Part shown: one piece after another, positions 2,177 to 64,000 of the stretch
Layout of the letters: the number at the start of each line of letters is the position of its first letter
Numbering within the stretch: position 1 is the stretch's first letter
NCBI GenBank assembly: GCA_000091205.1
Contig: AP006499.2
Length of the DNA: 64,000 nt
Origin: Cyanidioschyzon merolae
Lineage: Eukaryota
Reading direction: 5' to 3' (one strand)
Notes under the pieces: model-generated
Databases searched by the model: none
The model's input: the letters and a program-made list of their open reading frames with translations, nothing else
What the model was told of the DNA's origin: nothing
Program-made: the position numbers and the translations under genes

Positions 2177-2209
2177 TCACTCGCATAACTTTCCTTTTTA
2201 ATTTTTTTT

Positions 2210-2274
2210 CTGAAAAAGAACGCACCTTGAATGCTTCAGGTATAAACAGCGAAAAATCACTTGAATACACTTAC
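2210..2274 (-). other. Putative 65-nt spliceosomal intron in the 5' leader of LA (GTAAGT...TTTTTCAG)
   Basis: Minus-strand reading is CTCAAG|GTAAGTGT ... GCGTTCTTTTTCAG|AAAAAAAATT. An intron of identical length with a GTGAGC...AG boundary sits at the homologous position of L+ (61441-61505). Confidence 0.5.
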
Positions 2275-3119
2275 TTGAGGGTTGGAATACGATTGAACTG
2301 AAAAGCATACTTTGCTACGACTTCAATGCAAATACACCGCGTGCAGCAGAACAACACGCTCTTGATACCGATCGCGTTTCCGTTCAAGAGCAGCATGCGC
2401 GAAGTGTCTCGTGTAACTGGCTGATGTCTCTGGTGCACGTGTCCAGCCCCCTACAGAAAAAAAACAGAGACTCACGACTAACTGGCAACGATATGACAAT
2501 TTCTTTCCCCCCTCTAAGGTAAACGTTAAAAGGCGAAAAGGTTTCCATATTGTCGAAAGTTTATTTTATAGGCGAAACGTCCCGCGAGCCGGACGTGTCT
2601 GCCAGACCAGTGCTTCATGCGACCCCAGTGGAAGGTGCTTGCTGGAAACCCGAGCAACTCGTGCGAAATGCAGTTTATTATGAGACTAGGAGCGGGTATG
2701 CTGCGTCAGGGCGTCGGCCTGGTCGCAGTTATCTCCTTACATATCGCTTGGCGCTGCCGCAGGCACTAGGTCTGTCTGCAGAGCTTGCAGGCTCCCAGAA
2801 AGATTATGTACTCTGGCTCTGTATCGGGAAAAGCGCTCCTCGATTCGATGCCCTCTGTGGTACGGTAACGCGGTTTTGTCTCCGCGATCCATCTGTTCCA
2901 GCGGTTTAGGCGCCACTACGGGTGCTCGTGGTAGGTACTCGCGCACGCTAGAACGTAAAAACCGACCAGTATGTCCGAGATGAAGTGTAAGAGATGGATC
3001 TTAGTCGGCCGGGGCGGGAAGGGCAGCATGATGAGCGCTTCCTCGAAAGCCACTACCCATCCATCCCGAAATCTGGGATCCATGGTAAATGTAAACGTTT
3101 GTCATCGAAAAAAAACAGA

Positions 3120-15138: not shown

Positions 15139-16640
15139 TGCGCCACTACATCCATGTCAGAATAAAATTGAAGAGGTCCACTTAGCCGACATGGGTGCAA
15201 ACATCAGAATCATTTCAGAGTAAAACAGAATAGGTTCATCGCGCAAGCTTGGATCCGCACTCGCTATGGTTACGGCTCTTCCTAATGGCATCAACGCGTG
15301 CCTTTAGAGGCTTTTTCTATGACAGCTTCCCTTTACGCTCTTGTATCTCGGGCTCTATACAGGCCGACCTCCGCTTTCCGTCGAGCTCTGTTGCCAGCAG
15401 TCGGAGGATATTTATGGCAACATATTCGTTTGGATTCCGCCGTTTCCGGCTGCAGCAGACGCATTTCACGCACAGAGTGAAGATGAGATCTACGTTTCTC
15501 TTGCCATTTTCATACTCTTTGCACAAGGCCTCGATACGGTATTCGTAACCTTCAGAATTGCCACTGTTAACGTGTTTCAGTGTGTCCAACACAACTTCTC
15601 CTTCGAGGGCTAGCCTATGACGTATGAACGCTTACTTCATCGCTCGGTGCATGCCCTTGACAGGTACATAAGGTTCACCGCCCCGCTCCGATGTTCTCCT
15701 CGGTTTTCGCGCCCGGTACAGTTCCTTACGATCGCGGACCTCTTGTGAGCGATTCTCGCGGTGAGGGCACTGCACGCTGCTCGTGCAAGCCCAAACTGTT
15801 GTGTTTCAAACATGGATTGTGGAACACGATATTGTCCATGATCAAACAAGTATCGAAAGGAAAATTTAGGCTGGAGGGGAATTCGAGCTGTGTCGGTCCC
15901 TCTACGCTCGCTTCGTGCACAGCGGTGACGCATTCTCTAGTCAAAGCAATCACTGGAATGACTCAAGTCCGAGTCCAAGACGATTCTTCGTGTAAGAAGA
16001 ACAGACGGCAGCCGATGGGAGCGTATTCCTTGGTAGGTATCATGCTGCTGCCGTCGAATAGTGTTTCGTCGATGGACACCAAGAGCGGAGGGTTTGTCTT
16101 TCGAACGAAGTCCAGGATTTGATGTGAAAGGTTCGAAAAACAAGTGGCATGAGCTTTTTAACGACTGGTCAAGGGAGGCTGCCGCGTTTTTTCCTTCCTC
16201 AATCTAGCTACCCGAATTGATACCCCCACGAGTCGCGTTGAAAAGTGACCATCGAAACCTTGAAGAATGCGTTATTTGAGGACGTTACGCATATGGAAAT
16301 GAGCCGACTGGAGGGATGGACGTATGAATCGGATCATGACATCGGAATTTTACGAATACATTGTCGATGGGATCGCGAATCATTTCGATTCACGTGGCGG
16401 AACGAACTCAAGCGACAGAGAGTTTGAGGAGCCACTCCAAAATGACCGCCGAAAGTCCTGAAACTTCGAATGAATCCTCAAGTCCTTGCTGCCGCACTTC
16501 GAATGTCGAGGCTGTACTTCAGAAAACCATTCGAAAGAATCGAAATTATCTGAAGAGAGCGAGAAGCTGAGTGTTGCAATCAATTCTGAAACAGGTTTAG
16601 GAATCTTCTCTTCGGTGCTGCGAACGAATATTCCTTATCT
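15139..16640 (+). repeat. Unclassified repeat family E, copy c (C/H-rich module plus downstream conserved segments)
   Basis: Homologous to 40450-41885 at the nt and aa level. The module at 15170-15613 and LWNTILSMIKQVSKGKF...VRVQD at 15691-16122 match KDLWNSMLSMVEQMLEGKF...VRVQE at 41064-41324. The motif TGCTGCCGCACTTCGAATGTCGAGGCTGTAC is shared. Confidence 0.55.
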
Positions 16641-23054: not shown

Positions 23055-24505
23055 CTGCACGCTTTCTGGAGCGAAAAGTTTCGCGACCATAGAATGTACA
23101 CAAATAAACCTACTCACAGAAGACACCCAGCCTTTTTTGACGGACTGCATGCTATCGGCTTCAGCAACCCCTTGCACAGTTTGAGCCTTAGCGGTTGCGC
23201 GACAAAGTTCGCTCGCGTCACCTCCTCGTGTCTTGTCTTCAGCACTGCACATCTTTTGGTATTGATGGCGACGTTACCGTCTCGGTTCACGAAATCCTTG
23301 CGTTTATTGCCTCTGCTTGAACTCAGCATTGCAGGGATTGCTAGAGGTCCTGCCTTCTATGAAATCAAAGTCTCGTTATCGTCTCGTTGAGCAAACACAT
23401 TTTCTCGCCTTTTTCCGTTCTTCTTCTTTATCACTCGCTCTTCTTCGGTTGGTGGTCGGCGTGAAGAGGATCTTTTTTTTCGTTCCTTTTTTGTGGAACC
23501 CGGCGACACCGGGCCTCCAGGATCCTTGACGTCCGTGACCATACCTATTCCTCGGATTTTTTTTATTTGAAAATGAACGCACTTCTTTATGCCCTTAGAT
23601 GAGGGCCTTCCTGGAGCGAGCAGGATTTGCGGAACAAAAACTACTTGTGCCCCGGTGTGTCACCGTGCAGAACGCTCCAGGGACTCGCCCAGTGGAGCGA
23701 TCATTATGTTAAAGGATACAAAACACTCCTTCGATGAGGTTGAAACACGTAGAGCACGGAGGAATGAAAAGCAGCGCTATCTGGATAGAATCTGCAAAAA
23801 CTCGAACGCATCGGAAATGGTGCAATGCCACGTTTTCCAGTAGAGGGAAGTCGGCGGACGTCAGGGAAAAGTCTTCAATGATTCGAATTTGCGGGTGCTG
23901 TTGTATGAGTCTCCTGTACGAGCGAAACTGAGGCCGTCAAATGGATCAACTGCAGCTAGAATAGACGATGATGTCCTCGTTCTCCTCGAGATCGATCGCA
24001 CATACAACGAGCCCCCTCTTTTTGAATACCCATATACGCTTCGGCCGTTTCGTCCAAAGCAAGTCTCATTTACCGGCGAAACAAACCGCCATTCCCGTGC
24101 TTCATACCGATCGCGACGTTTCAGGGATGCTGTCGTAGCGATTTCGATGGACGATGGTCGTGCATGAGCTAGGACTCTTTTTTTGCGACTGTATCCCAGT
24201 GTTTTCAGTACCACATGAACAAGTTTTTGAGAAACAGATACACTCTTGGCGGCTACTATCGTCGCTTTTGCCTCCCGCAGGGTGATCAACGGGTCGTATT
24301 TCCACCATGGACCGCAAAGAGTCTTTAAGAATATGGCTCTTGGCGCGGAGCGCGTATCCTGTGATCTTTCAGTGATCCTCAACTATCTGAGAACTGCCGT
24401 ATGACTGACCTAAAAGAAAAATACGGTCCCCCGTGCACAATGAAGTAAGGAATATATATCCTCCAGGCAGTTTGCCTTCGAATTATACGGTACGATGTAA
24501 CTTGA
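23055..24505 (-). mobile_element. Short TnpB/Fanzor2-like element copy S2 (degraded), with a K/R/E-rich insertion module
   Basis: The 5' region (minus) matches S4. The interior has ILAAVDPFDGLSF (RuvC-I-like). The C-terminus is KRKDFVNRDGNVAINTKRCAVLKTRHEEVTRANFVAQPLRLKLCKGLLKPIACSPSKKAGCLL, and the conserved 3' core CTGAAGCCGATAGCATGCAGTCCGTCAAAAAAGGCTGGGTGTCTTCTG is the reverse complement of 23117-23166. An extra module (23376-23582, MRSFSNKKNPRNRYGHGRQGSW...RASDKEEERKK) is shared with S5. Confidence 0.6.
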
Positions 24506-24935
24506 TATCGATCTGCCGCTCGTACTGCGAAAAAGCATTCGATGACACGCATCAGCGGTGGAACAGAATTGACCTGAAAGTCCGCAGAAATCGAACAATC
24601 TTTCAAGGTTTTGTCCATGATTCTAAAATGTGATATATTGGTCCATAACGCATTGCACGCCAAGCGATCGCGAGCGCCGCTCCCCATGTAACGAGCACCG
24701 ACGCGCGTCTGACGCCGAGCCCGGGCCAAAACTCGAACCGGTGCTGCGCAGCGACGGCCGCGACACGATGTGGCGAATGCCGGCGTATTCGTCGACACTT
24801 TGTAGACGCTCTAGCGCAGGCTTTACGTAACGAACTTTTTCTGATCGAAAACCAAAACTCAGTTTGATCGTACCTTGTGCACGCGTGGACAGTAAAAACT
24901 TGTATTGGGACCGATAATTGTCATAGGACGCGACC

Positions 24936-27211: not shown

Positions 27212-28570
27212 GAAACCTGGGCAGGCAGTGAACCTAGCAAGCCGGCTTCAAAGGTTTGTTGCACGTCGAAGCGCTCATGAAGAAACCGTTTATCGCCCAA
27301 CACCGTCTGCGCAAGCTGGAACCAAATGAAGCGTTCTAGGATGTTTTCAGGATGTCGTACTGCTAAACTGTCAGCGTTGCGTCCGCAATGCAGCGGTTTG
27401 TGCTGCGCTCTATGATCGATGAAACCTGTGCGAGACAAATATGCTTCCGAGCGACCATCAACGGTGCAGGTCATAGAGCCAATCCATACCTGACAGGTCG
27501 AGAAGAGCATCGATCGATCCTCTGGCAATGCTCCATAGCGAAGACATGTGAGCTAGACTGCGTGATGCGCGACACCCCGAGGATCCATTCGCCCCCGGTC
27601 TTGGAGCGCCCACATGTGAGGTCGAAGATAAAATCACGAGCGCCCAGGTTCTCTTCAGGTATCTCCGCTTTCTTCCGTTGTGTCTATCTCCGGGAGGGAG
27701 CTCCCGTAAACCCAGAAACAACGCGGTAATGAAGAATCCATCGCACAGGACTCGAATTGCTGCTCGAGTGTTGCAACATTCGAGGCACTCAACATCGGGG
27801 TCGTGCATCTGCTTGACATCGCGACGTTCGTGGTTGCGTGCCTTTGCCTATTCGGAAGCTCTAGCGCACGCATGTACGGTGTGCGTCAAGCCGTCACTCC
27901 CTCATACATGGGAAAGCCCTGCTCTCTCTGTGCTGCATCCGCAACTTCGCTATAGGCGCTGTTGCGGACGCTCACGATAGAGTCGGTGTGTGATGGAACG
28001 TACGAAATGACTTGTATCTCCGGGGGGAATAGCGAGTGCTGGAACTTGTAGGTGGGTAGAATTACGGGCGCTTTCCCGATCGCCACTATCAAGCTCAATC
28101 GGAGATTCCTGGTCGCTAGAAAAGTTCTCTCAACAAGCAACGTACAGCGTTCTGGTTCGATGTATGCGCAGCGCCGTGTTCACGTCAGGTTCTGGCGCAG
28201 AAGCGTCGTATGGCTGTTTCCACCGCCGTGGCGGATGCCTTGCTCCAAGCACCAGGTATACGGTCACATTATTGGTACTGACAGGGAAGATGCCTCTCTA
28301 GCGCCGATTCCAACTACGAGATGCTACGTACTGAACGACCTGTGCTGGCGTTTCAGCATACCCAGAGCGACGCCGCATCGGATGCTGCGGAACGTTCTTC
28401 AGTGACATCCTGCACGTGGGTGAAACTGGACGCCCTCTCGGGGACGCGCACTGCGCGCCATCTGCGACACACACCGCGTCCGTTCTGGGTCCGTAGCTGT
28501 GGTCAGTGGGGTTTGCTTGACGACCTGGCGCTTAAAGAGAGCGCAGCATAAATCCGGGTCTGTCTGCTGA

Positions 28571-29230
<660 letters not shown>

Positions 29231-30232
29231 CCTGTAAGGCGATCTTGGCGGTGCAGCACTGAAGGGTTTCAAGGCCCTCGGTTAAATGTCTCAAAGTTCC
29301 GCGTACTAGGCGCGGCGCACGGAAGGCGCGCAGTCGTGTTCGTACCCTAGACTGGTACAGGCTGTGAGAATCTCTTCTCTATCATGCATCCGTCGCAGTA
29401 CGTTCTTTAAGGAAATGCATTTCTATCAAAGGACCTCGGTGGTCCTGGTAAACGAGTAGGGCGATGGTTCCGGAAAAGGCTGAAGGGCGACGGTGCTGTG
29501 CCAGCGCCGACCGCCTTCTTCGTACTAGCGCCCGCTTCTGGCTCTGTAACGCTTGCCTTAGCACTAGCAGTCGCTGACGTCGTGCTCGCTGCACCATTTC
29601 CAGTGGATGCTCTGTCATGTGTTTGCACGCTCTGTGCGGAAGCCGTTTTTGGTGGTTTCTCCGCCGCACTTGACGAGGACCCCGCAGTGCTACCGGCATC
29701 CGTTGGTACCCGAGGCACTACTCCAGTCGTTTGTTTCCTCTCAAATGCTGGCAGCTGGCCGTTGCGAATACGACTGCGAGCTGAATCAGCTCCGGGCATT
29801 GGAAGGCGCTTCTTGCCAAGTTTGCCGCCTCGAGTCAATATCCAGCCGTCGCCGCCCCAGACTCGGTCTGCGCGAAGCACCAGCAACGGGCGGCTGTTCT
29901 GCGCAGAGATCGAGCTCCGCCAGCTAGTCTCGTGAAGTGCATGCGCGCAAAACCCGATGACACCTATTGAACCGAGTGTTCCAAAGGACTGCAACGCACT
30001 CAACGCAAAAGCTTGGCACTGCATGGAGAGGCTCAGACACCCTGAAGGAATTGATGAATAAAGATCAAGCGCAGCTAACTGTGGAGCCGTAGCGGCGGTC
30101 GGCGCTCTGCGGCACACGCGGCAGTGGGTAGTTTAAGAAAAACAACAAAGCGGACATTCTCTTGCGGTGTCCGTGTATAGGGTCTTTCATCTCAATTTCG
30201 TTCCGCCTCTGCTACGTTCTGTAGAAGAAGGT

Positions 30233-31620
30233 CGAAATTATTGTGTAATTAACCTTTTAGATCGTAGACGAATTGTCAGTAGGGTACGTATTCTTTACTA
30301 AACAGTCCACGGAGAACTGCATTCCTTCTTCATGTCAGACATTCCACATCACGCAGATGGTTGCGGAACACTGGAAGACAGGCATAGACGCGCTCTGCGT
30401 CAAGAACCGATATTCTCCACGTGTGCTTCCAATCAACGGTAGAACACGATCCTTTGATCACCTTTTCCGGAAGTACAAAGCGACGATAATAGATGCCACC
30501 AGCGCCTCTGTTTCTAAACAGCTTGTTCATGTGGTCCAGAATACACTAGGATACTGTCGCAAGAATGTCCTAGTTCAATCACCGTCATCTCCCATGGAAA
30601 TCCCAGTTACAGTGCTCCTTGAACATCGAGATCGGTATGAAGCACAGGGACGTGGGTTTTTTTCCTCAGTCAATGAGACTTGCTTCCGATGAAACAGTCG
30701 GAGAAGATACGGATATTTGCGGAGCGGGGCGCCCGTTCCATATACCATCGAATTCGAGACGAACGACGAAATCATCATCCGTTCTAGTTGTAGTGGATTC
30801 TATTTACGGCCTCAGTTTCGATCGTGGGGAAGGCTCATACAACAGCACCAACCATTTTGTCGAATCATTGACGATTTTTCTCTAACATCTGGCGACGTCC
30901 TTCTACTGAACAACGTGGCATTTCACCAGCCCCCTCGCGGTCGAGCGTTTCCCGATTCTATCGGGATAGAGCTCGTTTTCATTCTTCCGTACGCTCCGTG
31001 ATTCAACCGGAACGAAGCAATCTTTTGTATCCTGAAATGCAACGATTGCTCCACAGCGAGATTCGCTGAAGCGTCCAGCACATGGTAAAACTGGGCCACA
31101 TTATGTACCATTTGCGCAAGTGCTTTTTCTTCCGGGAAGGGCCCCACCAAAGGCCATAAAGAAGTGCACTCACTCTAAAAGAATTAAGGGATGAGCTGGG
31201 ATGCACACTTCAGATGCTCGAGATTGAGAAAAGACTGCAGAGCGCTTTGGCGACAGAAATGTACGAAGACATGATAGAGCACCAAATGGCACAGAGGGCC
31301 TAAGTGCGCAGATTCCTCGCATAGGTGAGTACAAGCGGAAGCAAGAAAGGCATGAAGTTCGTGACCCGAGATTATAACGCTGCTATCAATATCAGGAGAT
31401 TTGCGGTGCTGGCGACGAAATCCCGGAAGCTGACGCGAGCTTCCTTTAGAGGGTCAGCATCTCAGGCTCGAAGTATGCTGGGATAAATACTGAAACCGAT
31501 AGCAGGCAACCGGTTGAAAAAGCCTGGGAGGCGTCTTCTGGTGGATATGCATATACCCCCACATGGCGGTGCGAAATTTTTTATTTCACTGAGGGTATGT
31601 ATTTTGATGGACTTAAATAG
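30233..31620 (+). mobile_element. Short TnpB/Fanzor2-like element copy S3 (degraded), with an intact RuvC-III motif
   Basis: The 5' end CGAAATTATTGTGTAATTAACCTTTTAGATCGTAGACGAATTGTC matches S1. The interior has VLVVVDSIYGLSF. The C-terminus is LRDELGCTLQMLEIEKRLQS...KKGMKFVTRDYNAAINIRRFAVLATKSRKLTRASFRG. The 3' core at 31491-31552 is CTGAAACCGATAGCAGGCAACCGGTTGAAAAAGCCTGGGAGGCGTCTTCTGG. Confidence 0.65.
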
Positions 31621-37723: not shown

Positions 37724-38427
37724 CTATTGTGGCGAGTTGGCTTTTGCCCAGGTTGCGACCAAGGCAAGCTCACGACTATATTTCCACAGCAGTGCTGGCT
37801 TTCCTCGAGCGAGAGCAACCTGCGCGCAGCAGTCTCAGATCCGACTCCGCTTCCCCGGGGCGCGTAGCTTCTAGAGTGGTGAAAACATTATTAACACAAT
37901 CCGTGACCTGTATTGAAATTGTGCAAGCTAACCAGATTCAAGTAACGGGTAATAAATATAAAAATAAATCTTATCGTCGTCATTCAGGACGTCCAGGAGG
38001 GATGAAGATTCGTTATTTTTATCAAATAGGTGGAAAAAGAGCATTGGAACATGCAATTAAAGGTATGCTTCCAAAAGGTGTGAAAGGTCGCCAATTGTGG
38101 CGAAAAATTCGTATAGAAGCTTAGAAAGAGTTATGTATGCCATAGGAAAACGTAAATGTGCCATCCCCGGGGAAGCAACCAGCCTGTATCGTGTACCAAG
38201 CTGCAATCCATATTTGTGCATATTAATTCTAAACATTCCACGATTGAACTGGATCCAGTGCAGCCTCGAATCGCGATGCCACCCTGGCGGCTAACCTGCT
38301 GCGCGTACCTGGCAGCTAAAAATGATTCTTGTTCCTCTAGTTGCTTTCAACTTAATTCAGTTCCAACCCCGCTGTATAAAATCGAATGATTTTTCTCAGT
38401 GTAGAGCACGAGATCGAGGTCACTATG

Positions 38428-39788
38428 TAATTTATTGTGTACATCTTAGATGAATAGCCTGTAGGATATATTCTTTAGTAAACAATCCCTGCAGGACTGT
38501 ATTTATCCTTCAGGTCAGTCATACAACAGTACTCAGACGGCTCAGGAACACTGAAAGAAAGGAGTATATGCGCTCCGCGCCAAGTACCGATATTCTCAAA
38601 GCATGGTTGCGGTGAATTGTAGGAATTGGACCCGTTGATCGTTTTTTACGGAAAGCAAAAGCGAAGATAATAGCGAACACGGGCGTCACTTTTCTCACGA
38701 GCTTGTTCGGGTGGCGCTGAAAACAGAGGTATACTGCCGGAGAAAAGAGCCCAGTCTCATGCACGGCAATCTCCCGCTGAAATCGCCTCAGCAGAACTCC
38801 TGGAACGTTGCGATCTGTAAGAAGTAGAGGAACTCCGGATCGTTTTCTCTGTCAATCAGACTTTATTAGGAAAATACGGTCGGTGCGTGTATGGGTATTC
38901 GCAGAGCAGGCAGCCGGTTGTATGTAAGATGAAACTCACAGAGAACGAGGATATTATCATCTATTCTAGCTGCGGTGGATTTACTTGGCGGCCTCGGTTT
39001 CGCTCGTAGAAGAGAATCATGCAACAGCACCTGCTACGTCGAACCATTGAAGACTTTCCCCTGACGTCTCACGACGGCCTTCTATTGGACACCGTAGCAT
39101 TGCAACATTCCCCTTGCGTTCGAGCTCTTGCCGATCCTGTCTGGGGTAGAGCTGCTTTTCAATCCTTCATACACTCCCTGGAAAAATCCAATCGAAGGAA
39201 TGTTTTCTATTGTGAAACGTACTGATCGCTCTACTGGACGAATCGCTGAAGATCTCAGCACATGGTTACACCGAGGCACATGTCGCATGTCGTCCGCAAG
39301 TCCTCCTCGCTCCAGGAAGGTCCTCACCTCAGGGCCTAAAGATTTGCATTCATTTTCAAAAACCAAAAATCTCAGGGATGAGCTGGGGTGCACGCTTCAC
39401 AAGGTCGAGATGGAAAGAAGGCAACGGATCGCCTCGGCGATGGAAATGGACAGAGACATCACAGAGCTGCAAGTGGCATTGAGGGCGCGCATTCGAGGAC
39501 TCCTTGCACCGATGAGTATCACGAGTGAGAAGAAATGCATGGAGTTCGCGAACCGAGATTTCAGCGCCATCGTCAATATCAGATGATGTGCGGTGCTGAA
39601 GACAAGACCCGAGGAGCTGACGTGATCCACTTTTTGGGGCAGTATATCAGGCTCTAAGTGTACAGGGATAGAAACTGAACCTGACAGCAGGATATCGGTT
39701 GAAAAAGGCTGGGGCATCCGCGAATGGGCGAATATATACCATCCATAGGCGTGAAATGTGTATCCTTTTTCCTGCAGTATGTATTCAT
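38428..39788 (+). mobile_element. Short TnpB/Fanzor2-like element copy S4 (degraded)
   Basis: The 5' region is shared with S2. The C-terminus is LRDELGCTLHKVEMERRQRIASAMEMDRDITELQVALRARIRGLLAPMSITSEKKCMEFANRDFSAIVNIR*. The 3' core at 39675-39725 is GAAACTGAACCTGACAGCAGGATATCGGTTGAAAAAGGCTGGGGCATCCG, followed by GCGAATATATACCATCC. Confidence 0.6.
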
Positions 39789-40449: not shown

Positions 40450-41885
40450 GTGCGCCGCCACCGATACAGCATCTTCGGCTCCTTTATGCATGCACGCAGA
40501 TACATCCACGTCAAATTCAAATGGAACCGGGCACATTCACCTAACACGGATGTTTACTCTAAAGTTTGGGTCCGGTCCCTTTGCCATCAACACCAGCATT
40601 TGCGGCATTTTTACGCGACTGCTTCCTCTTGCTTTCTCTCACCGCCGGCTTTAAATATGCAGGTCTTTCCATTTCTCCAGCCGCGTTGCCAGAATTCGAT
40701 TGATCTGGATGACAGCATCAAGGTCCTGATTATGATGCTTCCGGCAGCTGCCGACGCAATTAAAGCAGATGCGGAAGTTGCTATCTACACCCTGCTTGCC
40801 ATTTTCATCTTCTTCTTACATCGCCTCGGTGTGCCCATTGCAGTAGATGCACTTGGCTGCGGTATAAAATTCCCATGGTTACACCACATATTCTCCTCAT
40901 AGGGCGGCCCTCTGAAGCGTGAACGTTTACTTCATCGCTTGCAGTAGGTCGATGAAGAGTACTTGAGGCTCCCCTCGGTTGCGTTCTCCGTTTCCGATCC
41001 CGATATCATGCCCCAAGATCATAAGCTTTTCCGGGGCAATCACATAAACGAGCTATCTGTCCGATGCGTGAACGCGCACTGTTCCATTCGATAAAAGATT
41101 TGTGGAATTCGATGTTGTCCATGGTGGAACAAATGCTAGAAGGGAAATTCGCGCAAGCGATCGAATCGAGAAATTTCGATCCGTTTACGCTCCATTCGTG
41201 CAAATTGTTGAAGCACTGTCGACTAGAAGCGATCGCTGCTATGATGCGAGTCCGAGTCCAAGAGCCTTTTCTATGGAAACAGAAGATATGGAATCATCTG
41301 AAAGATATCCATGTAGAGGTATGACGCTGGTGTGGACTGCATTTTCGTCGATAGCCACAAAAAGATGAATGATTCGTCTTCCGGAAGAAATTGATTATAT
41401 GGAATGAAATGCTCAGTATGTGTTCGGCGTGAGCTCGTGAAGAAATCGTCATGGAAGGTGACCGAGTGTTTTATTTCGTCCATAGAGCAGCGCGGATTGC
41501 TGCGCCCAAGATTTGCGTTGAAGTAGAAAAAAAATTCTTCGAAATTCCTTATTTGACTATGCAAGAGGTAATAAAAAGATAAGAAAGAATTCTTTTACAC
41601 ATGGATTGGATGATCAAATTGTTTATTCGAAGCACCGTCGTTTGAGGGTGTCACGAATACTCTTTATAACGGTGACGTACCAAAATTCCAGGGGCAGAGT
41701 GTCGACAGTGCTACTCCAAGAGAACGATCGCAAACCCCAAACTGCTTATGCATCCATCAGCCCTTGGTGCTGTGCATCGAATGTTAAGGCTGTACATCTA
41801 TAAAGAAGATCGACAAAGTCGACATGCATAAAGCGAGTGCGCGGCTCAGTTTCACATTTAAATTTCACTTCAGGATTATATCAAC
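40450..41885 (+). repeat. Unclassified repeat family E, copy b (C/H-rich module plus downstream conserved segments)
   Basis: ORF 40423-40902 (HVKFKWNRAHSPNTDVYSKVWVRSLCHQHQ...LPAADAIKADAEVAIYTLLAIFIFFLHRLGVPIAVDALGCGIKFPW) and 41064-41324 are homologous to copy c (15139-16640). Copy b carries an AT-rich insertion at about 41500-41640. Confidence 0.55.
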
Positions 41886-42439: not shown

Positions 42440-44800
42440 CACACCAGCGACACGTGCCAGTTGGGAATCGAGTGCGATCACTCCTGGCGGCTGAGATTCT
42501 TCTCGACGGTCGTCTTCACCGTTTCAGCGCAACGCCGACACTGAGTAATGAGCGATTTCCTCGAAATTTCGCTTGAGACAGAGCTGCTGAAAGCTCAGGA
42601 AGCACGAGAAGTTTCCGGACGTTGGTCGAGATCTTCAAGTCACGATGCAGAAACCGCTTGCCGGAATGCGTAAAGTTGGAATCACAGCCAAGAAAGCATC
42701 TCATCTTCATCCATGATGGCATCTGACGGTGAACCGGCGTACCGAATAATATCTCGTACACCCAGTTCAGTTTCAATGTATTTTTTTCGACCTGTTCCCG
42801 CAGGCGCCCATGCACATGTTGCCTGGATGCCGTAAAAAACTGATCGATGAGACTCACATAGAATCGATTCTAGCACTTGTCATGCGCTCTCGTTGAAGGC
42901 GTGGGAGTGAAGCCTTTTAACGGTCCAGCACGTTCATAATAATCGGATACCATCAAACGACACGATTTCTCGGTCATATTCTTTCCCAAGTCATTGAAGA
43001 AGTTGGCAAATGCGCGCTGCCCTGCCCTGTACAATTAAAACCGTTGGCGGCTCGAGCACGTTTCCATATGCGCCCAACAGGAATCGTACGCATGAGCCAC
43101 TTGGACGCATTCGCATTCTCTGACTGGAGAAAGCAAAGCATTGTCCCTGCTCGACAAATTGCCAAGGGCGTTGAGACTGGTCCTGAAGCTGCCATTCCGC
43201 CCATTGGTATTCCTAATAGCGCGCATCATTCTCGAGCCCAGATGGTATCGACCTCTGGGAAATTGCTTTTCTTGATCTACTTTCTGTTCATGTATTTAAC
43301 TTGGCCCTCTTTATTTAGAGGTACCCTGGCAGCCATGGCGGTCTTAAATCGGCGATCTATGCCCCTGAAATGATCGTTCTATTCATCTTCTCTAAAGATT
43401 AAAAACGAGTCATGTTGCTCGACTCAGTCCTAGGTTTCACGAGTTTCTTGATGTCCTCCCAGCTAAATTCTCTGCCGGTCTCCGTGGTCCATGTAAAAGC
43501 TTTCCGTTTCACCCCTGTAGACGAGAAACCTTGCACGAGCTCCGCCGATGCTCTTCCCGATATTGTTGGAATGCGTCGTGGTTTCTCGCAGAGGGCAACT
43601 CTATCTTCACCTTTCTCGCTCCATGGCTGGCCAGCATGAACGTTGTTGCTCAGCTTCACATCCGTTTTCCCCGCAGAATCCAGACGCACCGTCCAGACGC
43701 ACTGCTCCGAGCGTGTTACCGAAACTTGCCCTCTCTATTCATGTATCCTCTATTTCTTAACTAAATTTTCGCTTTCTGCTCCGTCGCGAGCATGCCCATG
43801 AACCGAAGCGCGCCTTTTCGCTTCCTCTCTCGCATGAGTTGAGGAGCAACGCAGCAGTCGTGGTGTTTTGAAAGCAGAGAACGATTTTGCGAAGACCGCT
43901 ATCACGGATGCGAATGACTCTTCTGTATCATAGATCATATAAATTGCGTTTGACGGTAGAGTAGACACCTTTGACTGGACTGGGCCAGGGAGAGTAAATA
44001 CGCACGAAGAGAAGCTCAAATCTTGTCCCAGCAGTGTCCCGCTAACCGTTTTGAGTAATATGAAGCAGTGTAATCTAGGAACAGGAAACAGGTATGTGGG
44101 AAGGAGCCGCCCCGAGTTATGCCTCGAGAAATGATGAGCTATTTAATGATTCATTCAGTTTGACCATTCGATTCATACACCGCCGAGGCTGATAATGGCG
44201 GATTACTCGCTTTTCTAGTCTTCAGAAATAGTTATTTGCCTCTTGCTGAGTGCCCGTGTAGAGTTCTCGCATTTCTCTCGAATGCAGTCTCATCTAGTGA
44301 TTCGAAAACCCATCTCCAATCTAATGAGCGCTCCTATTTTAGTACCAATTCTACACCATGCTGCTCAGCGCGCGATGGTTTCCAGTAGAAGCGCGCGTTT
44401 TGCTTTATACATCCACGTCTCTTCGCCACCGTCCGTTCCAACGATGCGAGAAGCTCATTTCCTGTCGATTTTTCAATGTTATTTCTTAGGGAACGTATGG
44501 AGTGGCGTGAATCGGCTACGGGGCAGCCTTGCACATAGTGATCGGATGGTTCTGTTTCGTCGACGCGACCTCCGGGATAAAAGCTAAGATATGGATGGTC
44601 CATCCCCTTGTTGATCCATTGAACGACTAACCTCGTCGAGTAAGTTTTTATTTCTCGCCAGCTAATATTGACAGTATAAAGCCTTTCCATAACCTTTCCC
44701 TAATCTACAGGATACAATACTTTCGTTAAATACCCGCTAGAAGAGCAAACATAACCAGTAAGGTTGCGGTGATCCAGATAGTCCAGAATTCACTGCACTG
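42440..44800 (-). mobile_element. Long TnpB/Fanzor1-like element copy L3 (diverged, degraded)
   Basis: Minus-strand segments align to LA/L+: 44334-44690 (YSTRLVVQWINKGMDHPYL, about the ASSGLMHLV block), 43750-44019 (...DGAESENLVKK, about GDGAESREQ), 43399-43689 (VKRKAFTWTTETGREFSWEDIKKLVKP, about VRKIEFTGETSETYWKNIFDIKHLK), 43035-43229 and 42880-43040 (VQVAHAYDSCWAHMETCSSRQRF*...QRAFANFFNDLGK, about VRVAHWDALWEEYTKPRW...QRAFANFFNQL), and 42516-42857 (RFYVSLIDQFF...GKRFLHRDLKISTNVRK, about RDFNAAINIRK). The 3' core at 42472-42530 resembles the family block. Confidence 0.55.
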
Positions 44801-51471: not shown

Positions 51472-52000
51472 TTGTATCGCCAGTAAAATGGACAACATTT
51501 CATGATCATAGAGGGAAAATATATACCTTCTCACAGACGCTTCCCAGCCTTTTTCAATCAGTTGCCTGCTATCGGTTTCAGTGTTTATCCCCGCACGCGT
51601 CGAGCCTACGAGGCTATCCCAAGAAGTTGGATCGCTCCAGCTCCTTGGGTCTCGTCTTCAGTGCGACACACCTTCTGATATTAATGGCGGCGCTGACGTC
51701 TCGGTGCAAGAACTCCACGCGTGCATTGACGCTGGTTAAACTCGCCACTGCAAGGATTGCTGGAAATCGTGCCCTCTGTGTAACTACAGTCTCGTCATCG
51801 TCCCGTCTCGTAAACACCTTTCCTCGCCTGTCTCCTCTTTTTTCTTCTTCGTCACTTGCTCTGCTTCGCTCAATATTCGGCGAGAAGAGAATTTTTTCCG
51901 TTTCCTTCAGGCAGCCAACGATGACGGCCTTCCAGGATCCGGGACTTCCATGCCCATGCTTTGTCCTTGGATTTTTTATTTCTTCAAATGAACGCACTTG
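51472..52000 (-). mobile_element. 5'-truncated short TnpB/Fanzor2-like element copy S5, closest to S3, with an intact RuvC-III motif
   Basis: Minus ORF 51614-51997: MRSFEEIKNPRTKHGHGSPGSW...RASDEEEKRGDRRGK (the module shared with S2), then ...PAILAVASLTSVNARVEFLHRDVSAAINIRRCVALKTRPKELERSNFLG. The 3' core (reverse complement of 51523-51578) is CTGAAACCGATAGCAGGCAACTGATTGAAAAAGGCTGGGAAGCGTCTGTGAG. The tail GAAATGTTGTCCATTTTACTGG matches the S1 tail. Confidence 0.6.
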
Positions 52001-52208
52001 GGGTCCATCTGCGATAAACCGCGAAAAAGCATTTGCTTACACGCACCTGGGGTCGGAATATCATTGAGGTCAAAGACTAGAAGCAGAATCCTCTGGGTAC
52101 TTACGCGGGGCGTCGTCCCTCTGGCGAACTTGCGCTCGGAGAGGCGCGCGGATTGTTTATGCAGATTCTCGCGTTTCAACGCATATCAAAAAGGTTTCCG
52201 CAGGCCTC

Positions 52209-58880: not shown

Positions 58881-60989
58881 ATTTACTTGTGTCGATGTGT
58901 AGAACAGGTGAGCAGTCCAAAGAGCACACAGCATTGGATGGGTGCGATAGCCATATGGCTATGCTGATGAAGTCTGTGACGAGGTCCCTCTGCTTAATCG
59001 CTGAGAAACTTTTCTCGTCCGATACAGTGCCTTGCATGGGTTTCGGATGTTCGGCTTGAACGCTGTTTCCGTCAAAACGCCGCACGGGTGCAACCGCACG
59101 AAACCTCTCCCAGCCTTTAAACATCTAGGGAGCACCCCCTTTGGATTCTACGCTTCTACCAGCGAGCAAGCAAGAGAGATTTTTGCTGATGATTCAGAGG
59201 CCGTCAGAATAATTAGAAGGGTCTTCCTTAACGTTTACCCGAAAGGCTGTAGCACGCCAGCTCGACAGGAGTCTTCAAAAAAGCTCAAAGTGTTGACAGT
59301 ACGTGAGCGAAGAGCAACTGCACTCATGCAAACGTCTACCCCTACACCGCATGGAGACTTTCCAGTATGCGGGATTCTTGGATACAGCATCCTCCAAACC
59401 AGTGGGAAAATGAATTTTACTTAACGCGTCCTTGAGCCGCCGCCCGCGAGGGTGCTGTAAAGCTGCGCTGCCTCTGTACGACGTGCACAGACCCGCGCCT
59501 CGCACCCGAGAGAGCCCCCACTGGAGACTAGGCTGCTGGAGAGCCGCGTGCTCGATCAAGCCAATATTCCACAGGCGTTTCCATGACTAAAGCTGGCTGA
59601 GCGAGGAAATGCCCGTGGGTGAGGTGAATTCTCTGTTCTGAGCATTGAGAGTACGTCCACATCAGTGGAAACTTTTAGAAGCTTTCATCTAAATGAAATA
59701 ATTAGTGCATTTACCTCATCGGGCTGTGCCCGACTCATGAAATGACTAAGCGTTTGAACTAGACTGTCTCATTTCCGCACCAATGAAATGGCGCTTTTTT
59801 CCCGCGGAGCTGTTTGTTCACTTACGTTGTAGCTGTATATCAACGAATCCAATCATCACTATCCAAAAGCTGAGTTGCAGTTGGATGCTGAGGAAGAAAT
59901 CACTGTAGCAATCGAGGCCTCCGTAAGTTAGACCGACCCCACCCGTGTGTCAGAATAAAACGGAACGTCGCACTGCTCGCTTTTCCCATGCCTTTCTAAT
60001 TTTAGCCCAATCATTTCTTAGATGCGCATCCTCCGCACTCAAACTAAAATAATAAAAGTTTACAGGTTCACTCGTGGTTTTTTTGGATTCTCGTTCGTTT
60101 TTCCGTGGTAGCTTGTTCGACTCTTTGTTGCTGGAATGCGTTTCTTTGTCGAAATCATAATGATTCACGACGCCATTGAACAAGGATTCGTAAAGTACCC
60201 GATTATATTATCCAGTTGATACGTCCAAGATTCCATTTTTCTCCTTTCTTTGCGTCTAGTACGATGAAACAGCGCATTCTTCAAGTGTTTGACCTTTCTG
60301 CTTCAAGACAGCTGGAGCGCGTAGCAACTTGCACCGCTGGATTGACGACGACGAAGAAAATTCGACATCGTCCCTTGAATAGCGTTTCGTAAACGCACGC
60401 CAAACGCTCACTGAACCAATCACAGCAAGTAATCGATGCGGTTCGAAAAGCAAGTCCTTCCCTCTTGATCGCCATCGACGAAACGGGATTCCGCCGCAAT
60501 TATAAGCTATCTCTCACGGGACCCGCTCCCAGAGGCACCCATCTCATTTTCCGCGCGGAAAAGGTTCTTGGACTAGAACTAGAGTCGTCGCTGCGATCGC
60601 TTCCACTCGGGATTCCGTCACCGCTTTGAGCCTGGGGGCGTACACGGATCGAGATCTCTCGAGCGCTTTCACAACCTGGAGCTTCCTTCTGGTACTTGTT
60701 TCAGCATGGTCAACATAGCGTTCCGTGAATCCTCTATCGAATAGAACAGCGAGCACTCGGGCGCGCAGCAGACATAGTACTCGCCAAGTAGTCACCCAGC
60801 TCAAGCACGTCATCGTAGAGTTCGCCGTCGGACCCGGAAACGGAGGAGCGAACGGACAGGACCCTTTTCTGGCTGTCAAATTGGCATGTGCCGAACGATG
60901 AAGAAAGGGTTCATGATCTGCAGGGCGACCCTTTGAGGAACAGTTTTCGGGTATATAGGGGAACACTTGACCACAATCAGATGTCATCG

Positions 60990-61165
60990 CCGCGATGAGC
61001 GCACCGCGACTTTACGCGAGGAAGACGCAAATGGCAAGCAAAGCGTAGATCGCATCTCCCTTTCGAGCATTAGATGCGTGAGCAGCAGCCGGAAGCAGTG
61101 AAATGGTGGCTTTGACACTGCCATCAACATACTTCTACTTCTGAAAACGGAGCTAGAGGGACAAG
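60990..61165 (-). repeat. Partial copy (d) of the E-family C/H-rich module, directly upstream of L+
   Basis: The minus-strand translation DGSVKATISLLPAAAHASNARKGDAIYALLAICVFLA* matches DGSVQVPISLPPGVLETVHPEAVVTIYALLAIAIF of copy a. The nt motif GATGGCAGTGT(C/T)(A)AAG is shared. Confidence 0.5.
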
Positions 61166-61440
61166 AGAATTCTGCGTTGCTACAGGCGCATATGAGAGAG
61201 ACAAGGGAAGTAGTCAAACATCATGCCCGCCAAGACTGGTATTGACGAAAGTGAGAAGCGACCCAAAGCCTAGTCTTTTCTCCCGAGTTAGAGGGTCGGT
61301 CCTCGTTTGTTCAGAAATGAGTGTAGATCTGCCTCCACGTTGGGGGCCTATTAATGAAATGATTCATAATCCGCGTCCTCCTGCTGGCAAACCTGCTCTT
61401 TCTACTTATGGTCTATCACCTCAATTTAGTTCCAATCTCA

Positions 61441-61505
61441 GGTGAGCGTCATCGAATGCTTTTTCGCAGTTTTCAGCAGGAGCATTGGAGTGCATTCATT
61501 TTGAA
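61441..61505 (+). other. Putative 65-nt spliceosomal intron in the L+ 5' leader (CTCAG|GTGAGCG...TTTTGAAG|)
   Basis: Same length and position as the LA intron (GTAAGT...CAG). A leader of about 25 nt precedes the ATG at 61531, as in LA. The upstream ORF 61242-61445 cannot be spliced in frame, so exon 1 is non-coding. Confidence 0.5.
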
Positions 61506-61530
61506 GAAATGAATAATCCAAGGTGAAGCT

Positions 61531-63678
61531 ATGGATATGCAGGACAGAGATCCTGTTCACCAAGTGTCGCCGGCTGCCAGAGAAAAGCAAAAAGCAGTGT
61601 CTAGTCCAGAGGAAAAGGAGAGGACAAGAAAGAAACGGCAGGTGGCCCGAAGTCAATGGCCGCAAGAAAGACGAATGTACGACGATACGGTGGTGATAGC
61701 CTGTCTTTTCGGACATATCACGGATACGTACGAGGAAAAATTGCGAGACGCCATCAGAAACCGTGTCGATTCGTACTCCATGAGTACTAGAAAGGCGTCG
61801 TCAGGGCTAATGCATTTGGTGATGAAGATGAACGAAAACGTGACGCACATGGAAACAGTCGCGGTTCCGGACGAGTTTTTCGACAAGACCTTTATTCGTA
61901 ACCTAATGCTTGGCACAGGCGAAACACGGAGAGAAAATAGCGGGTTCACGCCCTCCACGAAAATTATGCCGAACTCCGCTTCGAGGGTACTCGAAACAGG
62001 GGTGACCAGGATATTTACGCATGCGGAGCGATGAAGTATCTCACGAACCTGAAGAACCATTTGACGATGAACCTCGAACGTTCCATGATACGCGCCGTGG
62101 TTGCACTCTACTCGGGCCTGTCTCGCAAAGGACTGCGGGCGATTATCAATGGCATCACGAAGGATCGCAAGCATGAAGATGAGATCGAATTCGTCGACAA
62201 GAAGACGTCACGCAGGAGCACAAATGAAGCGTCTGTAATCCAAGGGGTTATAAAAGAGCGCCGTACAGTGTTGGGGCTGGCGAATCCAGTAGAAGAGGTA
62301 TCAGATATGAAAAAAATGAAGAGAGACACTATCGCCTCGTCCTGCGATATTTCGTGTTTTTGGACCAAGAGGTCGAACGCAAGAAGGAGATGAAGCTGAG
62401 TGAGCAAAAAATGAAGATTGGGAGAGACGGAAGGCTGCCCTGACGGGGAAGCGCTTCAACGTCGATCCGATATGTAACGTCAAGTCATACTTTGTGGGTA
62501 TCGATTCAAGAGTCCTCCATGGAATCATGAAGGAGATCAGTCCGGAGTTCAATGTAAGGAAGATAGAGTTCACTGGTGAAACAAGTGAGACGTACTGGAA
62601 AAACATCTTCGATATCAAACATCTCAAAACGAGCAAGCAAAAGGTATTTACTGGGATGATTGAAACCGATGGAGTAGCCTCGTGTGTGCACTATCGGCGG
62701 TTGAAGAAAGATCGGCCAGTCCCTTCGTCGGCTGCGCCCGTTACGAAGGATGAAGAAAACAATGAGGAGGATCCTGCGATGCAGGAGGTGCAGGATAACG
62801 ACCTTGTCTTTGACATGACGAAGGATGAAGAAAAGAAGAAGGCGGATCCTGCGATGCAGAAAACGCAGGATAACGACTTTGCCGTCGGCGTGGACCCTGC
62901 GAATACGAATGTCATAAGTATCGCAGTACCTAAGCGTGCGGAAAACGGTACTGACGGTAATTTACGTCAGAAAGACATGCGTCTGTTGAGATTCTCGAGA
63001 GCGAGATTCTATTGGGAATCGGGAATAATGAATGCGAGGAAGAAAATCGACACTTAGAATGCAGGAATGAATAATCACCTGGAAGCTTTGAGCGAGGTGA
63101 CTAGCCGAGGAGCGTACTATGAAGCCTTTCGGAAATTCATGGAAGTTCGTGTTGCCCACTGGGATGCGCTGTGGGAAGAGTATACTAAGCCCCGGTGGGC
63201 TCTTTTGCGAATGAATCTATACGGTGAGAGGCAGCGGGCGTTCGCGAATCTTTTCAATCAGTTGAGCGCCCTCAAAGAGGATCAAAGTCAGAGGCTGGTA
63301 GTGGCATACGGAGCACGGCGATGGAAGACCAAAAAAGGGTATACGCCAGCTCCAACGACAAGAACGTACAAGGATTCCGCAAGGCGTTTCGTCACGATAC
63401 CTCTAGATGAGTTTCGAACATTGCATACACACCATGAACTGGGGTGTACATTTCAGAGAGTGGAGATAGAAAAGTGCCAGAGGAGCCCTGAGGATATAAA
63501 AAAGTATGGACCGCTGACGGAAGAGCAAATGGAAAGGATTTCGAAAGTTCGTGGACTACTTGCATTAGTAAGTAAAACCAGTGATGGTAAGAAACGTATG
63601 GAGTATGTGAACCGAGATTTTAATGCCGCTATCAATATTAGGGAATGTGCGGTGCTGGAGAATAGGCCTCCAAAGTAG
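61531..63678 (+). pseudogene. Fanzor1-like RuvC nuclease (TnpB homologue), about 690 codons in 4 segments (61531-62034, 62031-62393, 62494-63057, 63067-63678)
   Basis: N-terminal K/R/E-rich region, then the ASSGLMHLV block. RuvC-I is DNDFAVGVDPANTNVISIAV. LVVAYGARRW lies at the expected RuvC-II position. The Cys/His cluster is HTHHELGCTFQRVEIEKCQ, and RuvC-III is GKKRMEYVNRDFNAAINIRE. A +2 frameshift at 62031, a stop or frameshift near 62391-62403 and an in-frame TAG at 63679 (PPK*TRENFIGQPLKVE...) disrupt the ORF. Confidence 0.65.
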
Positions 63679-63836
63679 ACAAGAGAGAACTTTATTGGAC
63701 AACCTCTCAAAGTGGAACTATATGAGAGAAAGTTGGAAGCAGTGGTGGATGCCCGGTCCGAAAAGACGGGGAGGCGTCTGCACGTCAGCTGGAGAGGATT
63801 TGTCTAAGGCGCGCTGATCGCCACTACTGTCCACCG
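63679..63836 (+). ncRNA. Candidate omega-RNA (guide RNA scaffold) region of L+, conserved with the 3' blocks of all seven other copies
   Basis: AAGTTGGAAGCAGTGGTGGATGCCCGGTCCGAAAAGACGGGGAGGCGTCTGCACGTCAGCTGG (63731-63792) aligns with the reverse complement of 1-62 (LA) and with the S-family core CGGTTGAAAAAGGCTGGGAGGCGTCTTCTGG. The conservation persists where the overlapping ORF tails differ in stop position and frame. Confidence 0.4.
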
Positions 63837-63870
63837 CCGGCGAGCACGCGCTCGTGCGCGTGCTCGCCGG
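63837..63870 (+). other. Perfect 15-bp inverted repeat (hairpin) CCGGCGAGCACGCGC-TCGT-GCGCGTGCTCGCCGG at the 3' end of the L+ conserved block
   Basis: Read directly from the sequence. Its position suggests a 3' structural element of the candidate RNA, a terminator, or a subterminal transposon hairpin. Confidence 0.75.
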
Positions 63871-64000
63871 ATGCCGCTCCGCGACATGAAATCCGCCACC
63901 AACCCCCTTTTCGGTTTATTGCTGAGGTGGTGGGAGTGTATTGCTCGTTTGAAAAACCGTGAATTCGGGAAAGATGCGGGAATCAAAAATTTGCAAGCCA

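Follow-up and report, generated by a model that had tools for sequence, protein, structure and literature searches.

Fanzor1 elements are already known from Cyanidioschyzon merolae, where CMe-1A, with a 3169-bp consensus and ∼150 copies, was described as a single-exon element (Bao & Jurka 2013, Mob DNA 4:12, PMC3627910). CMe-1 and CMe-1A were listed as Fanzor1 'CMe', with no TIRs or TSDs reported and the TE class given as unknown (PMC3627910). The same study includes Mariner/Tc1 elements that carry Fanzor1 (PUl-1, PUl-2, PGv-1), and PUl-4, which has only Fanzor together with Mariner TIRs (PMC3627910). In PUl-1, PUl-2 and PGv-1, the transposase is followed by Fanzor1 within TA-flanked TIRs, as in several environmental composites (L012, L026, L041, L053, L079) and in the ancestor proposed below, and PUl-4 is a Fanzor-only derivative of the kind also found among the derivatives described here. 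In contrast to these elements, the abundant CMe-1A form of C. merolae has different ends, being extended by ∼140 nt at the 5' side and closed by a hairpin at the 3' side.

We analyzed a contiguous 64-kb stretch of the genome of C. merolae 10D (the window), in which a preliminary description had reported eight related loci, here named L+, LA, L3 and S1 to S5. Its view that the host is eukaryotic agrees with the proteins encoded in the window, which match C. merolae 10D BAM82022-82037 exactly. All eight loci were recovered by tblastn with the repaired L+ protein, which found, besides L+ itself, LA at 115-2155 (minus strand), S1 at 4079-4306 (plus), S2 at 23231-23320 (minus), S3 at 31193-31429 (plus), S4 at 39359-39610 (plus), L3 at 42600-43265 (minus) and S5 at 51647-51760 (minus). 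The stretch at 61407-63842 is very probably a dead CMe-1A copy, and the eight copies derivatives of a single two-gene Tc1/mariner-Fanzor1 transposon. The features are as follows:

L+, 61407-63842, plus strand: decayed CMe-1A Fanzor1 element, shortened at its 5' side, corresponding to consensus 786-3145 (blastn)
Leader of L+, 61407-61525, plus strand: consensus 786 to ∼905, common to long and short copies
Fanzor1 ORF remnant of L+, 61531-63807, plus strand: pseudogene, 85.6% identity to the consensus ORF
Tandem duplication in L+, 62743-62881, plus strand: 62743-62806 versus 62818-62881, 86% identity
RuvC-I motif GVDPANTN, 62887-62910, plus strand: predicted catalytic Asp; D484 (P0001 numbering) invariant in 40 relatives
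RuvC-II motif LDEFRTL, 63403-63423, plus strand: predicted catalytic Glu; E656 invariant in 40 relatives
RuvC-III motif NRDFNAAINIR, 63610-63642, plus strand: predicted catalytic Asp; R724, D725, N727, A729 and N731 invariant
GC-rich palindrome, 63837-63870, no strand assigned: at the position of the terminal hairpin in other CMe-1A copies
LA, 10-3107, minus strand: CMe-1A copy of full length that also has the 5' TE-N2_CMe part, 82.9% identity to consensus 1-3083
S1, 3108-4482, plus strand: decayed Tc1/mariner-type transposase gene and Fanzor1 3' remnant (4077-4348)
S2, 23060-24586, minus strand: transposase remnant, Fanzor 5' piece (consensus 869-969) and Fanzor tail (2864-3010)
S3, 30176-31597, plus strand: transposase remnant and Fanzor tail (consensus 2737-3082), TA at both flanks
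S4, 38338-39779, plus strand: transposase remnant (DDE_3, ...NPSYTPWKNPIEGMFS...) and Fanzor tail sharing one reading frame, TA flanks
L3, 42528-44717, minus strand: divergent, heavily decayed composite, transposase remnant (44717-43937) and Fanzor1 C-terminal part
S5, 51475-52079, minus strand: double-deletion derivative of ∼600 nt, leader and start (consensus 788-969) plus Fanzor tail, without transposase

L+ and LA belong to the same genome and sequence family as CMe-1A, with 83-87% identity, and the divergence between copies (∼80-85%) is as published. For L+, blastn against the consensus aligned one segment of 1411 nt (82.6% identity) and one of 1027 nt (87.1%); nothing essential differs, apart from the missing consensus positions 1-785 and a different terminal palindrome. 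The match begins at a TA dinucleotide (61407-61408); similarity runs from 61407, not 61290, to ∼63842-63872, and LA extends to 3107 rather than 2450, its 3' end continuing beyond the window. For the spliced 5' leader suggested earlier for the long copies, there is no counterpart in the published single-exon description (PMC3627910). Both copies are pseudogenes, since their ORFs are broken: that of L+ has three 1-nt frameshift deletions, one 75-nt in-frame duplication and three stops (consensus codons 137, 485 and 692, with a premature TAG at 63676), and that of LA has 10 frameshifts and four stops. The tandem duplication of L+ lies within an acidic, Lys-rich linker upstream of RuvC-I, the copy number of which differs between relatives. 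Among 12 long copies, diversity at third codon positions in the RuvC half is 2-2.6 times that at positions 1+2, which suggests past selection on the Fanzor protein. The family, presented in the preliminary description as new, is CMe-1/CMe-1A Fanzor1, and the main finding is already known, Fanzor1 in C. merolae having been in print since 2013 (PMC3627910).

The proposal that the long copies encode Fanzor-type TnpB homologs is supported by profile, fold search and catalytic residues alike, and we predict from sequence and structure model that they are of the Fanzor1 type. In L+, the three RuvC motifs occur in TnpB order, and D484, E656 and D725 occur without exception, and in collinear arrangement, in 40 diverse relatives from a family that counts 1527 representative homologs. 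A profile of these 40 relatives, the first sequence of which (P0001) is an intact 752-aa relative with 61% identity to L+, matched PDB sequences of PpFz1 (9cf0, E 1.2e-19), SpuFz1 (8gkh, 3.6e-12) and GtFz1 (9cer, 4.5e-6), the match spanning the WED/REC 'TGxIETDGV' region, RuvC-I, RuvC-II and RuvC-III of characterized Fanzor1. The AF2 model, made of intact P0001 and not of the broken L+, reached pLDDT 78.5 and pTM 0.76 (only pLDDT 34 was obtained with a shallow alignment), and the top seven Foldseek hits in the PDB were all Fanzor1 (SpuFz, PpFz, GtFz; E 3e-16 to 9e-13, TMt ≤0.72), with TnpB and Cas12 far lower. The fold of SpuFz1 (8GKH, 9CEU-9CEZ), PpFz1 (9CF0-3) and GtFz1 (9CER-T) is thus matched by the family model with TM ≤0.72, whereas sequence identity to the CMe-1 family is 12-15%, the zinc finger is not evident in CMe-1, and the window copies are pseudogenes. 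Between RuvC-II and RuvC-III, CMe-1 reads ...TSYTHHELGCTLQRVEMEKCQ...GLLALVSTT..., with two Cys and two His only; a canonical C4 zinc finger (CxxC...CxxC) was unrecognizable there, and in a PF07282 (OrfB_Zn_ribbon) scan P0001 scored E 0.23 and seven of the 40 relatives matched weakly. Characterized Fanzor1 proteins bind an omega RNA derived from the transposon 3' end and cut DNA matching the guide, RNA-guided nuclease activity of Fanzor having been known since 2023. By homology, the CMe-1A family may have been capable of RNA-guided cleavage as well.

The short copies are of another make. Upstream of a Fanzor part that consists of the last ∼115 codons, S1-S4 contain ∼270 codons of an HTH + DDE_3 transposase. 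The translated short-copy consensus (...SVDE...LLDN/KNVAFHH...PPxxPxFNPIEGVFS) aligns with P0044, P0045 and P0058 (PF01498/PF13384 + PF13358), the motifs being SVDETSF, LLDNVSFHH and PPYSPWFNPIEGVFS with a D-to-E spacing of 35, and database homologs of this transposase carry PF01498 and PF13358; the decayed S4 itself matches DDE_3 at E 2e-5, below the gathering score. S1-S4 encode, as read from these motifs and domain matches, a decayed Tc1/mariner/IS630-type DDE transposase followed by an internally deleted Fanzor1. The 'AVDSLSGLS' box, which had been assigned to RuvC-I in the short copies, sits within the transposase reading frame, and the homology between long and short copies, thought to cover the C-terminal half, amounts to ∼350 nt (consensus 2737-3085) plus a ∼120-nt leader. 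S1 lacks this leader and adjoins the 5' end of LA. As for the RuvC-III motif that all eight loci were said to share, exact matches to RD[FYV][NS]AAINI occur in L+ (63610-63642), LA (148-180), S3 (31364-31396) and S5 (51674-51706), but only degenerate forms in S1 (NGEFNTEKNTR), S2 (NRDGNVAINTK), S4 (NRDFSAIVNIR) and L3 (HRDLKISTNVR). L3, counted earlier as a third long copy, holds only a transposase remnant and the last ∼240 Fanzor codons (43265-42555, 31% identity to CMe-1), and no match between L3 and the CMe-1A consensus was detectable by blastn. Two ORFs (4653-5480 and 11030-11878) lie in a neighboring 1.27-kb duplicated repeat and had no Pfam match, even at E 10.

Intact relatives with both genes were found in metagenome contigs (L012, L026, L035, L041, L053, L064, L079, L086), which come from organisms other than C. 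merolae and contain a homologous transposase ORF (295-302 aa) together with a full-length Fanzor1 ORF (628-702 aa). These units are ∼3.0-3.2 kb long and bounded by TIRs of 28-48 bp, which start with CAC directly after TA in most loci. In C. merolae itself, all that was seen were reciprocal deletion derivatives and never an intact transposase-Fanzor composite, and Cyanidioschyzon-like metagenome contigs show the same deletion architectures as the window copies. Because intact TIR-bounded composites occur elsewhere, the window copies are very probably deletion derivatives of a two-gene Tc1/mariner-Fanzor1 transposon.

As to the ends, 22 distinct short copies have Tc1-like CAGT termini and TA, and many Cyanidioschyzon copies end in TA-(C/T)AGT...GTTTCAC and GTGAAAC...CACTGAC..TA, in degenerate form; the leader of L+ likewise includes a degenerate Tc1-like 5' terminal repeat, TA-(C/T)AGT-CTTTCAACTCAATTnnGTTTCAC. 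A search of the window copies and the CMe-1A consensus for TIRs gave a 15-nt inverted match (13/15, consensus 5-19 versus 3094-3108, p ∼0.01), the other matches being weak, and the TIRs of the window copies are degenerate candidates that are not established on the window sequence. Canonical CMe-1A copies reach ∼140 nt further at the 5' side, end in a hairpin (CGTTCGA-CTT-TCGAACG or CGTTTTTC-TTTT-GAAAGGCG) and have no Tc1-like repeats at their ends, which weighs against the derivation set out below. A CMe-1A core starting at consensus 786 was rejected, as most long copies in relatives reach ∼648-670 and a start at 786 is found only in L+ and the short copies. A 3' repeat of the short-class type at the end of L+ (∼63900-63940) was also rejected, its local alignment being no better than that of shuffled sequences.

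The ancestor would have been an element of the Tc1/mariner superfamily in which a DD35E transposase gene and Fanzor1, in this order, were enclosed by TIRs and flanked by TA. L+ and LA would have lost the transposase gene, the ORF of L+ having formerly encoded a presumable 734-aa Fanzor1 with a split RuvC nuclease (D-E-D). S1-S4 would have retained the transposase and lost Fanzor except for its last ∼115 codons, while S5 would have lost both. L3 would represent an older, divergent composite that kept the transposase and half of Fanzor. Frameshifts and stops have inactivated all copies in the window.

That the RuvC-like motifs are chance matches in an unrelated repeat would be in line with the lack of a significant Pfam match for the L+ ORF fragments and with the shallow family profile, which found no match among PDB sequences. 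Yet once 40 diverse relatives from a representative search were included, profile and fold search both succeeded and matched Fanzor1 specifically, and the number of representative homologs, the invariance of the D/E/D residues and the published assignment of the family to Fanzor1 (PMC3627910) all speak against this reading, to which we attach a negligible probability. It is also extremely unlikely that the window holds two true Fanzor size classes, as the preliminary description had it, with a Fanzor2-like short class of ∼400 codons that has its own RuvC-I (AVDS) and RuvC-III. The RuvC-III region is indeed present in the short copies, and in S4 the frame continues into it from upstream, but what lies upstream is the HTH + DDE_3 transposase, and only Fanzor consensus 2737-3085 is retained, without a RuvC-I or RuvC-II segment. 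Fanzor has been deleted internally in these copies, as seen from the junction, which joins the Fanzor 5'UTR to codon ∼612. With Fanzor2 and IS607-type TnpB elements, the short copies have the generic RuvC-III motif alone in common; they carry a DDE transposase instead of a serine recombinase, and no IS607-type serine recombinase or TnpB_IS607-like sequence was seen. The short class is thus a DDE transposase plus an internally deleted Fanzor1.

The short elements might further be seen as functional fusions of the transposase with the Fanzor C-terminus, or their tail as kept for an omega RNA or cis element, with Fanzor provided in trans. In S4 and in the metagenome protein P0051, the transposase frame reads on into the tail, a consensus built from 22 tails gives an open frame of 84 codons, the tail is kept in all independent deletion variants (with breakpoints at Fanzor residues 607-691), and its diversity is 0.35, versus 0.59 in the last 50 nt of the element. 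However, its codon-position asymmetry is marginal (0.327/0.349/0.375, p = 0.044), a RuvC-III fragment would not be able to fold by itself, RNAalifold gave no consensus structure for the 22 short-copy tails, and a scan of synonymous-site diversity in the long copies for an overlapping RNA showed no drop at the ORF 3' end, these sites being unconstrained there. Internal deletions of DNA transposons, moreover, usually leave the termini, for which no special function is needed, and we consider a functional fusion or a retained RNA or cis element quite unlikely. Most of the '3' RNA block' noted earlier is coding sequence; the true Fanzor ORF runs on to position 3110 of the consensus (...RRFV, then stop). 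The 3' 258 nt of the consensus fold only mildly better than shuffled sequences, and do so in the antisense (z = -2.3) as well as the sense orientation (z = -2.9); a conserved UTR box, CGCCACTACTGT, and a terminal hairpin are present.

Returning to derivation from a two-gene transposon, the value of this analysis lies mainly in corrections: the window has no Fanzor2-like class, and what was called a 'RuvC-I box' in the short copies belongs to the transposase. Its value as a discovery is small, the family being in print and the copies dead. For an active enzyme or guide RNA, the intact environmental elements, among them L012, L041, L053 and L079, and the intact P0001 would be a better start than the window locus. 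A wider picture, which we regard as unlikely, would have the CMe-1A lineage descend from a Tc1/mariner-Fanzor1 ancestor still intact in uncultured eukaryotes and split into reciprocal derivatives with a division of labor, the short ones providing the transposase and the long ones Fanzor, in which no transposase copy has given up the 3' segment of Fanzor, perhaps since it specifies an omega RNA or another cis element. Compared with the published description, the short copies, L3 and the intact environmental relatives here connect CMe-1A with a transposase of the Tc1/mariner type, and this link bears on the classification of CMe-1A, which was left as 'unknown' in 2013.

The long copy L+ (61407-63842, plus strand) holds four consecutive ORF pieces. 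Bridging two frame changes and one in-frame stop joins them into a single repaired protein, whose three motifs follow the order seen in TnpB:

61531-62034, 62031-62393, 62494-63057 and 63067-63678, plus strand: consecutive ORF pieces
62887, plus strand: GVDPANTN, first motif
63403, plus strand: LDEFRTL, second motif
63610, plus strand: NRDFNAAINIR, third motif

By tblastn, this protein matched seven further loci in the window: the long copy LA over nearly its full length (50-69% amino-acid identity), the divergent copy L3 over 227 residues (31%), and the short copies S1-S5 over its last 30-85 residues. The eight-copy family of the preliminary description therefore holds only in part, for a C-terminal segment. 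Four of the eight copies have an exact RuvC-III motif, the remaining four a degenerate one.

Neither Pfam searches with L+ fragments nor a shallow family profile run against PDB sequences gave a match. A word-indexed search retrieved 42 close relatives, all from JGI metagenomes, among them an intact 752-aa ORF (P0001, 61% identical); their sole label was PF26935/DUF8286, which was also the only, weak, precomputed Pfam match of P0001-P0041, and part of a Fanzor1 protein apparently falls under this "domain of unknown function" model. With the family profile, an exhaustive representative search reached 1527 homologues (E <= 1e-3). Forty diverse full-length members were aligned; none deviates at the RuvC-I Asp, the RuvC-II Glu or the RuvC-III R-D-x-N-x-A-x-N, and a profile of this alignment matched the solved chains of Parasitella PpFz1 (E 1.2e-19), Spizellomyces SpuFz1 (E 3.6e-12) and Guillardia GtFz1 (E 4.5e-6). 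The AlphaFold2 model of P0001 from the same alignment is confident (pLDDT 78.5, pTM 0.76), and Fanzor1 structures fill the first seven places among its PDB matches (E 3e-16 to 9e-13, TM as high as 0.72), with Cas12i, TnpB and Cas12f far below. The Fanzor assignment of the long copies is thus borne out, as Fanzor1. This clade shows no evident canonical C4 zinc finger and matches PF07282 weakly; the CxxC...CxxC between RuvC-II and RuvC-III appears to be missing (alignment A4, residues ~605-665 of the published protein CMe-1), CMe-1 having HH..C..C only and the clade consensus being GLLWCxST. Just upstream of RuvC-I (62743-62881) lies a 25-codon acidic, Lys-rich unit, also found in P0001, P0007 and P0008 and present in 1 to at least 5 copies among family members; its region is disordered in the P0001 model (residues 373-470, pLDDT <50).

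One C. merolae Fanzor1 family, CMe-1A, was described by Bao and Jurka (2013; PMC3627910), with a 3169-bp consensus, ~150 copies each ~80% identical to it, a 734-aa single-exon Fanzor1 product, no TIRs, undetermined TSDs, "TE classification unknown", and 5' 635 bp in common with another repeat, TE-N2_CMe. We aligned the consensus from their supplement to the window:

3107-10, minus strand: LA, consensus 1-3083 (82.9%)
61407-63842, plus strand: L+, consensus 786-3145 (83-87%)
S1, S3 and S4: consensus 2737 to ~3082 only
S2: consensus 869-969 and 2864-3010
S5: consensus 788-969, its Fanzor tail being seen in other comparisons, including tblastn
L3: no DNA-level match to the consensus

As L+ and LA align to CMe-1A, the long-copy family is a rediscovery of the published one. 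Exact-sequence look-up of five neighbouring ORFs (DAHP synthase, Sin3, Spo11/TopVIA, a CTD-phosphatase-like protein and a flavoprotein) found four identical to proteins annotated on a 1.23-Mb chromosome of C. merolae strain 10D (BAM82022-BAM82035); the fifth shares a 90% cluster with BAM82037.

Scored against the consensus ORF (906-3110), L+ is 85.6% identical and is interrupted by three stops and three 1-nt frameshift deletions, besides a 75-nt in-frame duplication. LA carries four stops and ten frameshifts, and S1-S5 and L3 have many of both; no copy in the window is able to encode an active protein. In 12 long copies, taken from the window and from related contigs, diversity at third codon positions of the RuvC half is 2-2.6 fold that of positions 1+2. 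Purifying selection therefore acted on the protein as the family diversified, a view also argued by Bao and Jurka (PMC3627910).

Most canonical long copies reach ~140 nt further 5' than the short copies or L+ (to consensus ~648-670); L+ starts at an inner Tc1-like repeat (consensus 786) with TA at 61407-61408. TE-N2_CMe (1-635) is a separate repeat that adjoins long copies in either orientation (metagenome contigs L090:1-266, L096:40-261 and L002:8342-9145), which suggests an insertion hot spot or target preference at the CMe-1A 5' end; an isolated fragment at 27908-28132 (minus strand) is 70% identical to the TE-N2_CMe part (consensus 4-232). At their 3' end (alignment A10, consensus 3122-3169), long copies have a near-invariant 3'UTR box, CGCCACTACTGT, and a terminal hairpin ending ...GGCG(T), of which two sequence versions exist; the box is complementary to CAGTAGTGG, ~80 nt upstream in the ORF. 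L+ has a palindrome (63837-63870) in place of the hairpin, and the match of a suspected short-class-type 3' repeat downstream of it was not significant.

The short copies had been taken for a second, Fanzor2-like size class. This reading is wrong: they encode a DDE transposase and an internally deleted Fanzor gene. Translations of S1, S3, S4 and a four-copy consensus show an HTH-like N-terminal segment (IYSLLNS..T..FLQVSHTT..RWL) and then the Tc1/mariner/IS630 hallmarks SVDE, LLDN/KNVAFHH and PPxxPxFNPIEGVFSILKR. Even the decayed S4 matches DDE_3 (E 2e-5), database homologues of the consensus are ~300 aa long with PF01498/PF13384 and PF13358, and a DD35E arrangement is visible in the transposase alignment; the supposed RuvC-I box "AVDS" lies within this transposase. 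Downstream of it, the CMe-1A 5'UTR is joined directly to Fanzor codon ~612 (HELGCT...), an internal deletion of the Fanzor gene. S2 additionally retains ~100 nt of the Fanzor 5' end, and S5 has the long-type leader, start and tail without transposase. In L3, a transposase remnant (44717-43937, minus strand) is followed by the last ~240 Fanzor codons (31% identity); this copy is an older, divergent composite. In 22 distinct short copies the ends read TA|(C/T)AGT-CTTTCAACTCAATTnnGTTTCAC and GTGAAACnTTTTnnGTTTCACTGAC-nn-TA, degenerate Tc1-like CAGT termini with an inner GTTTCAC common to both and TA as a putative target duplication. Where LA (minus strand) and S1 (plus strand) meet head to head, at 3107/3108, LA has its 5' end and S1 no leader of its own; probably, therefore, one of them inserted into the other or recombined with it.

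A second repeat family has copies immediately next to S1 and upstream of both L3 and L+:

4484-5748 and 10861-12146: two young copies, 98% identical over ~1.27 kb, long ORFs without Pfam match
15300-16400 (minus strand), 40675-41286 (minus strand) and 60153-61158 (plus strand): decayed relatives, the first with a weak Tc1/mariner transposase match at 15816-16085 (E 5e-9)

An active family member would be expected, by homology, to work with an omega RNA made from the 3' end; the SpuFz1 structure, by its PDB description, includes omega RNA and target DNA. The "3' RNA block" seen in the window consists mostly of the ORF's last 37 codons, part of which L+ loses through a premature TAG. Four analyses gave no clear sign of an omega RNA: RNAalifold found no consensus structure in the short-copy tails, the 3' 258 nt of the consensus beat shuffles only mildly in folding and did so on both strands, synonymous sites at the ORF 3' end of 12 long copies are not unusually conserved, and codon-position asymmetry in the tails is marginal (p = 0.044). 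That the tail retained by the short copies is functional therefore stays a minority hypothesis.

The best reading of the window copies is as reciprocal deletion derivatives of a two-gene element of transposase and Fanzor1. Scanning metagenomes with the short-class transposase consensus gave 80 loci, in which tblastn of the transposase and CMe-1 protein showed two patterns. Cyanidioschyzon-like contigs carry the same derivatives as the window (transposase, then Fanzor residues ~607-733, or 1-55 + 640-733). Contigs of other environments carry a homologous transposase and, downstream of it on the same strand, a full-length Fanzor1 (CMe-1 residues ~14-700, 25-43% identity). Eight of these loci have two intact ORFs (295-302 and 628-702 aa) inside 28-48-bp terminal inverted repeats, starting TA|CAC in most, in units of 2.9-3.2 kb:

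L012:1-3400 (retains NRDFNAAINI), L026:1362-4467, L041:169-3330, L053:236-3256
L064:93-3236, L079:199-3166, L035:1087-4151, L086:20-2964

The same Mariner + Fanzor1 layout is known from PUl-1 and PGv-1 (Bao and Jurka; PMC3627910). What is modestly new is that CMe-1A can be linked to a Tc1/mariner-type transposase and to intact two-gene relatives from environmental eukaryotes. These eight units, apparently intact and of non-Cyanidioschyzon sources, make candidate sources of active enzymes and guide RNAs.
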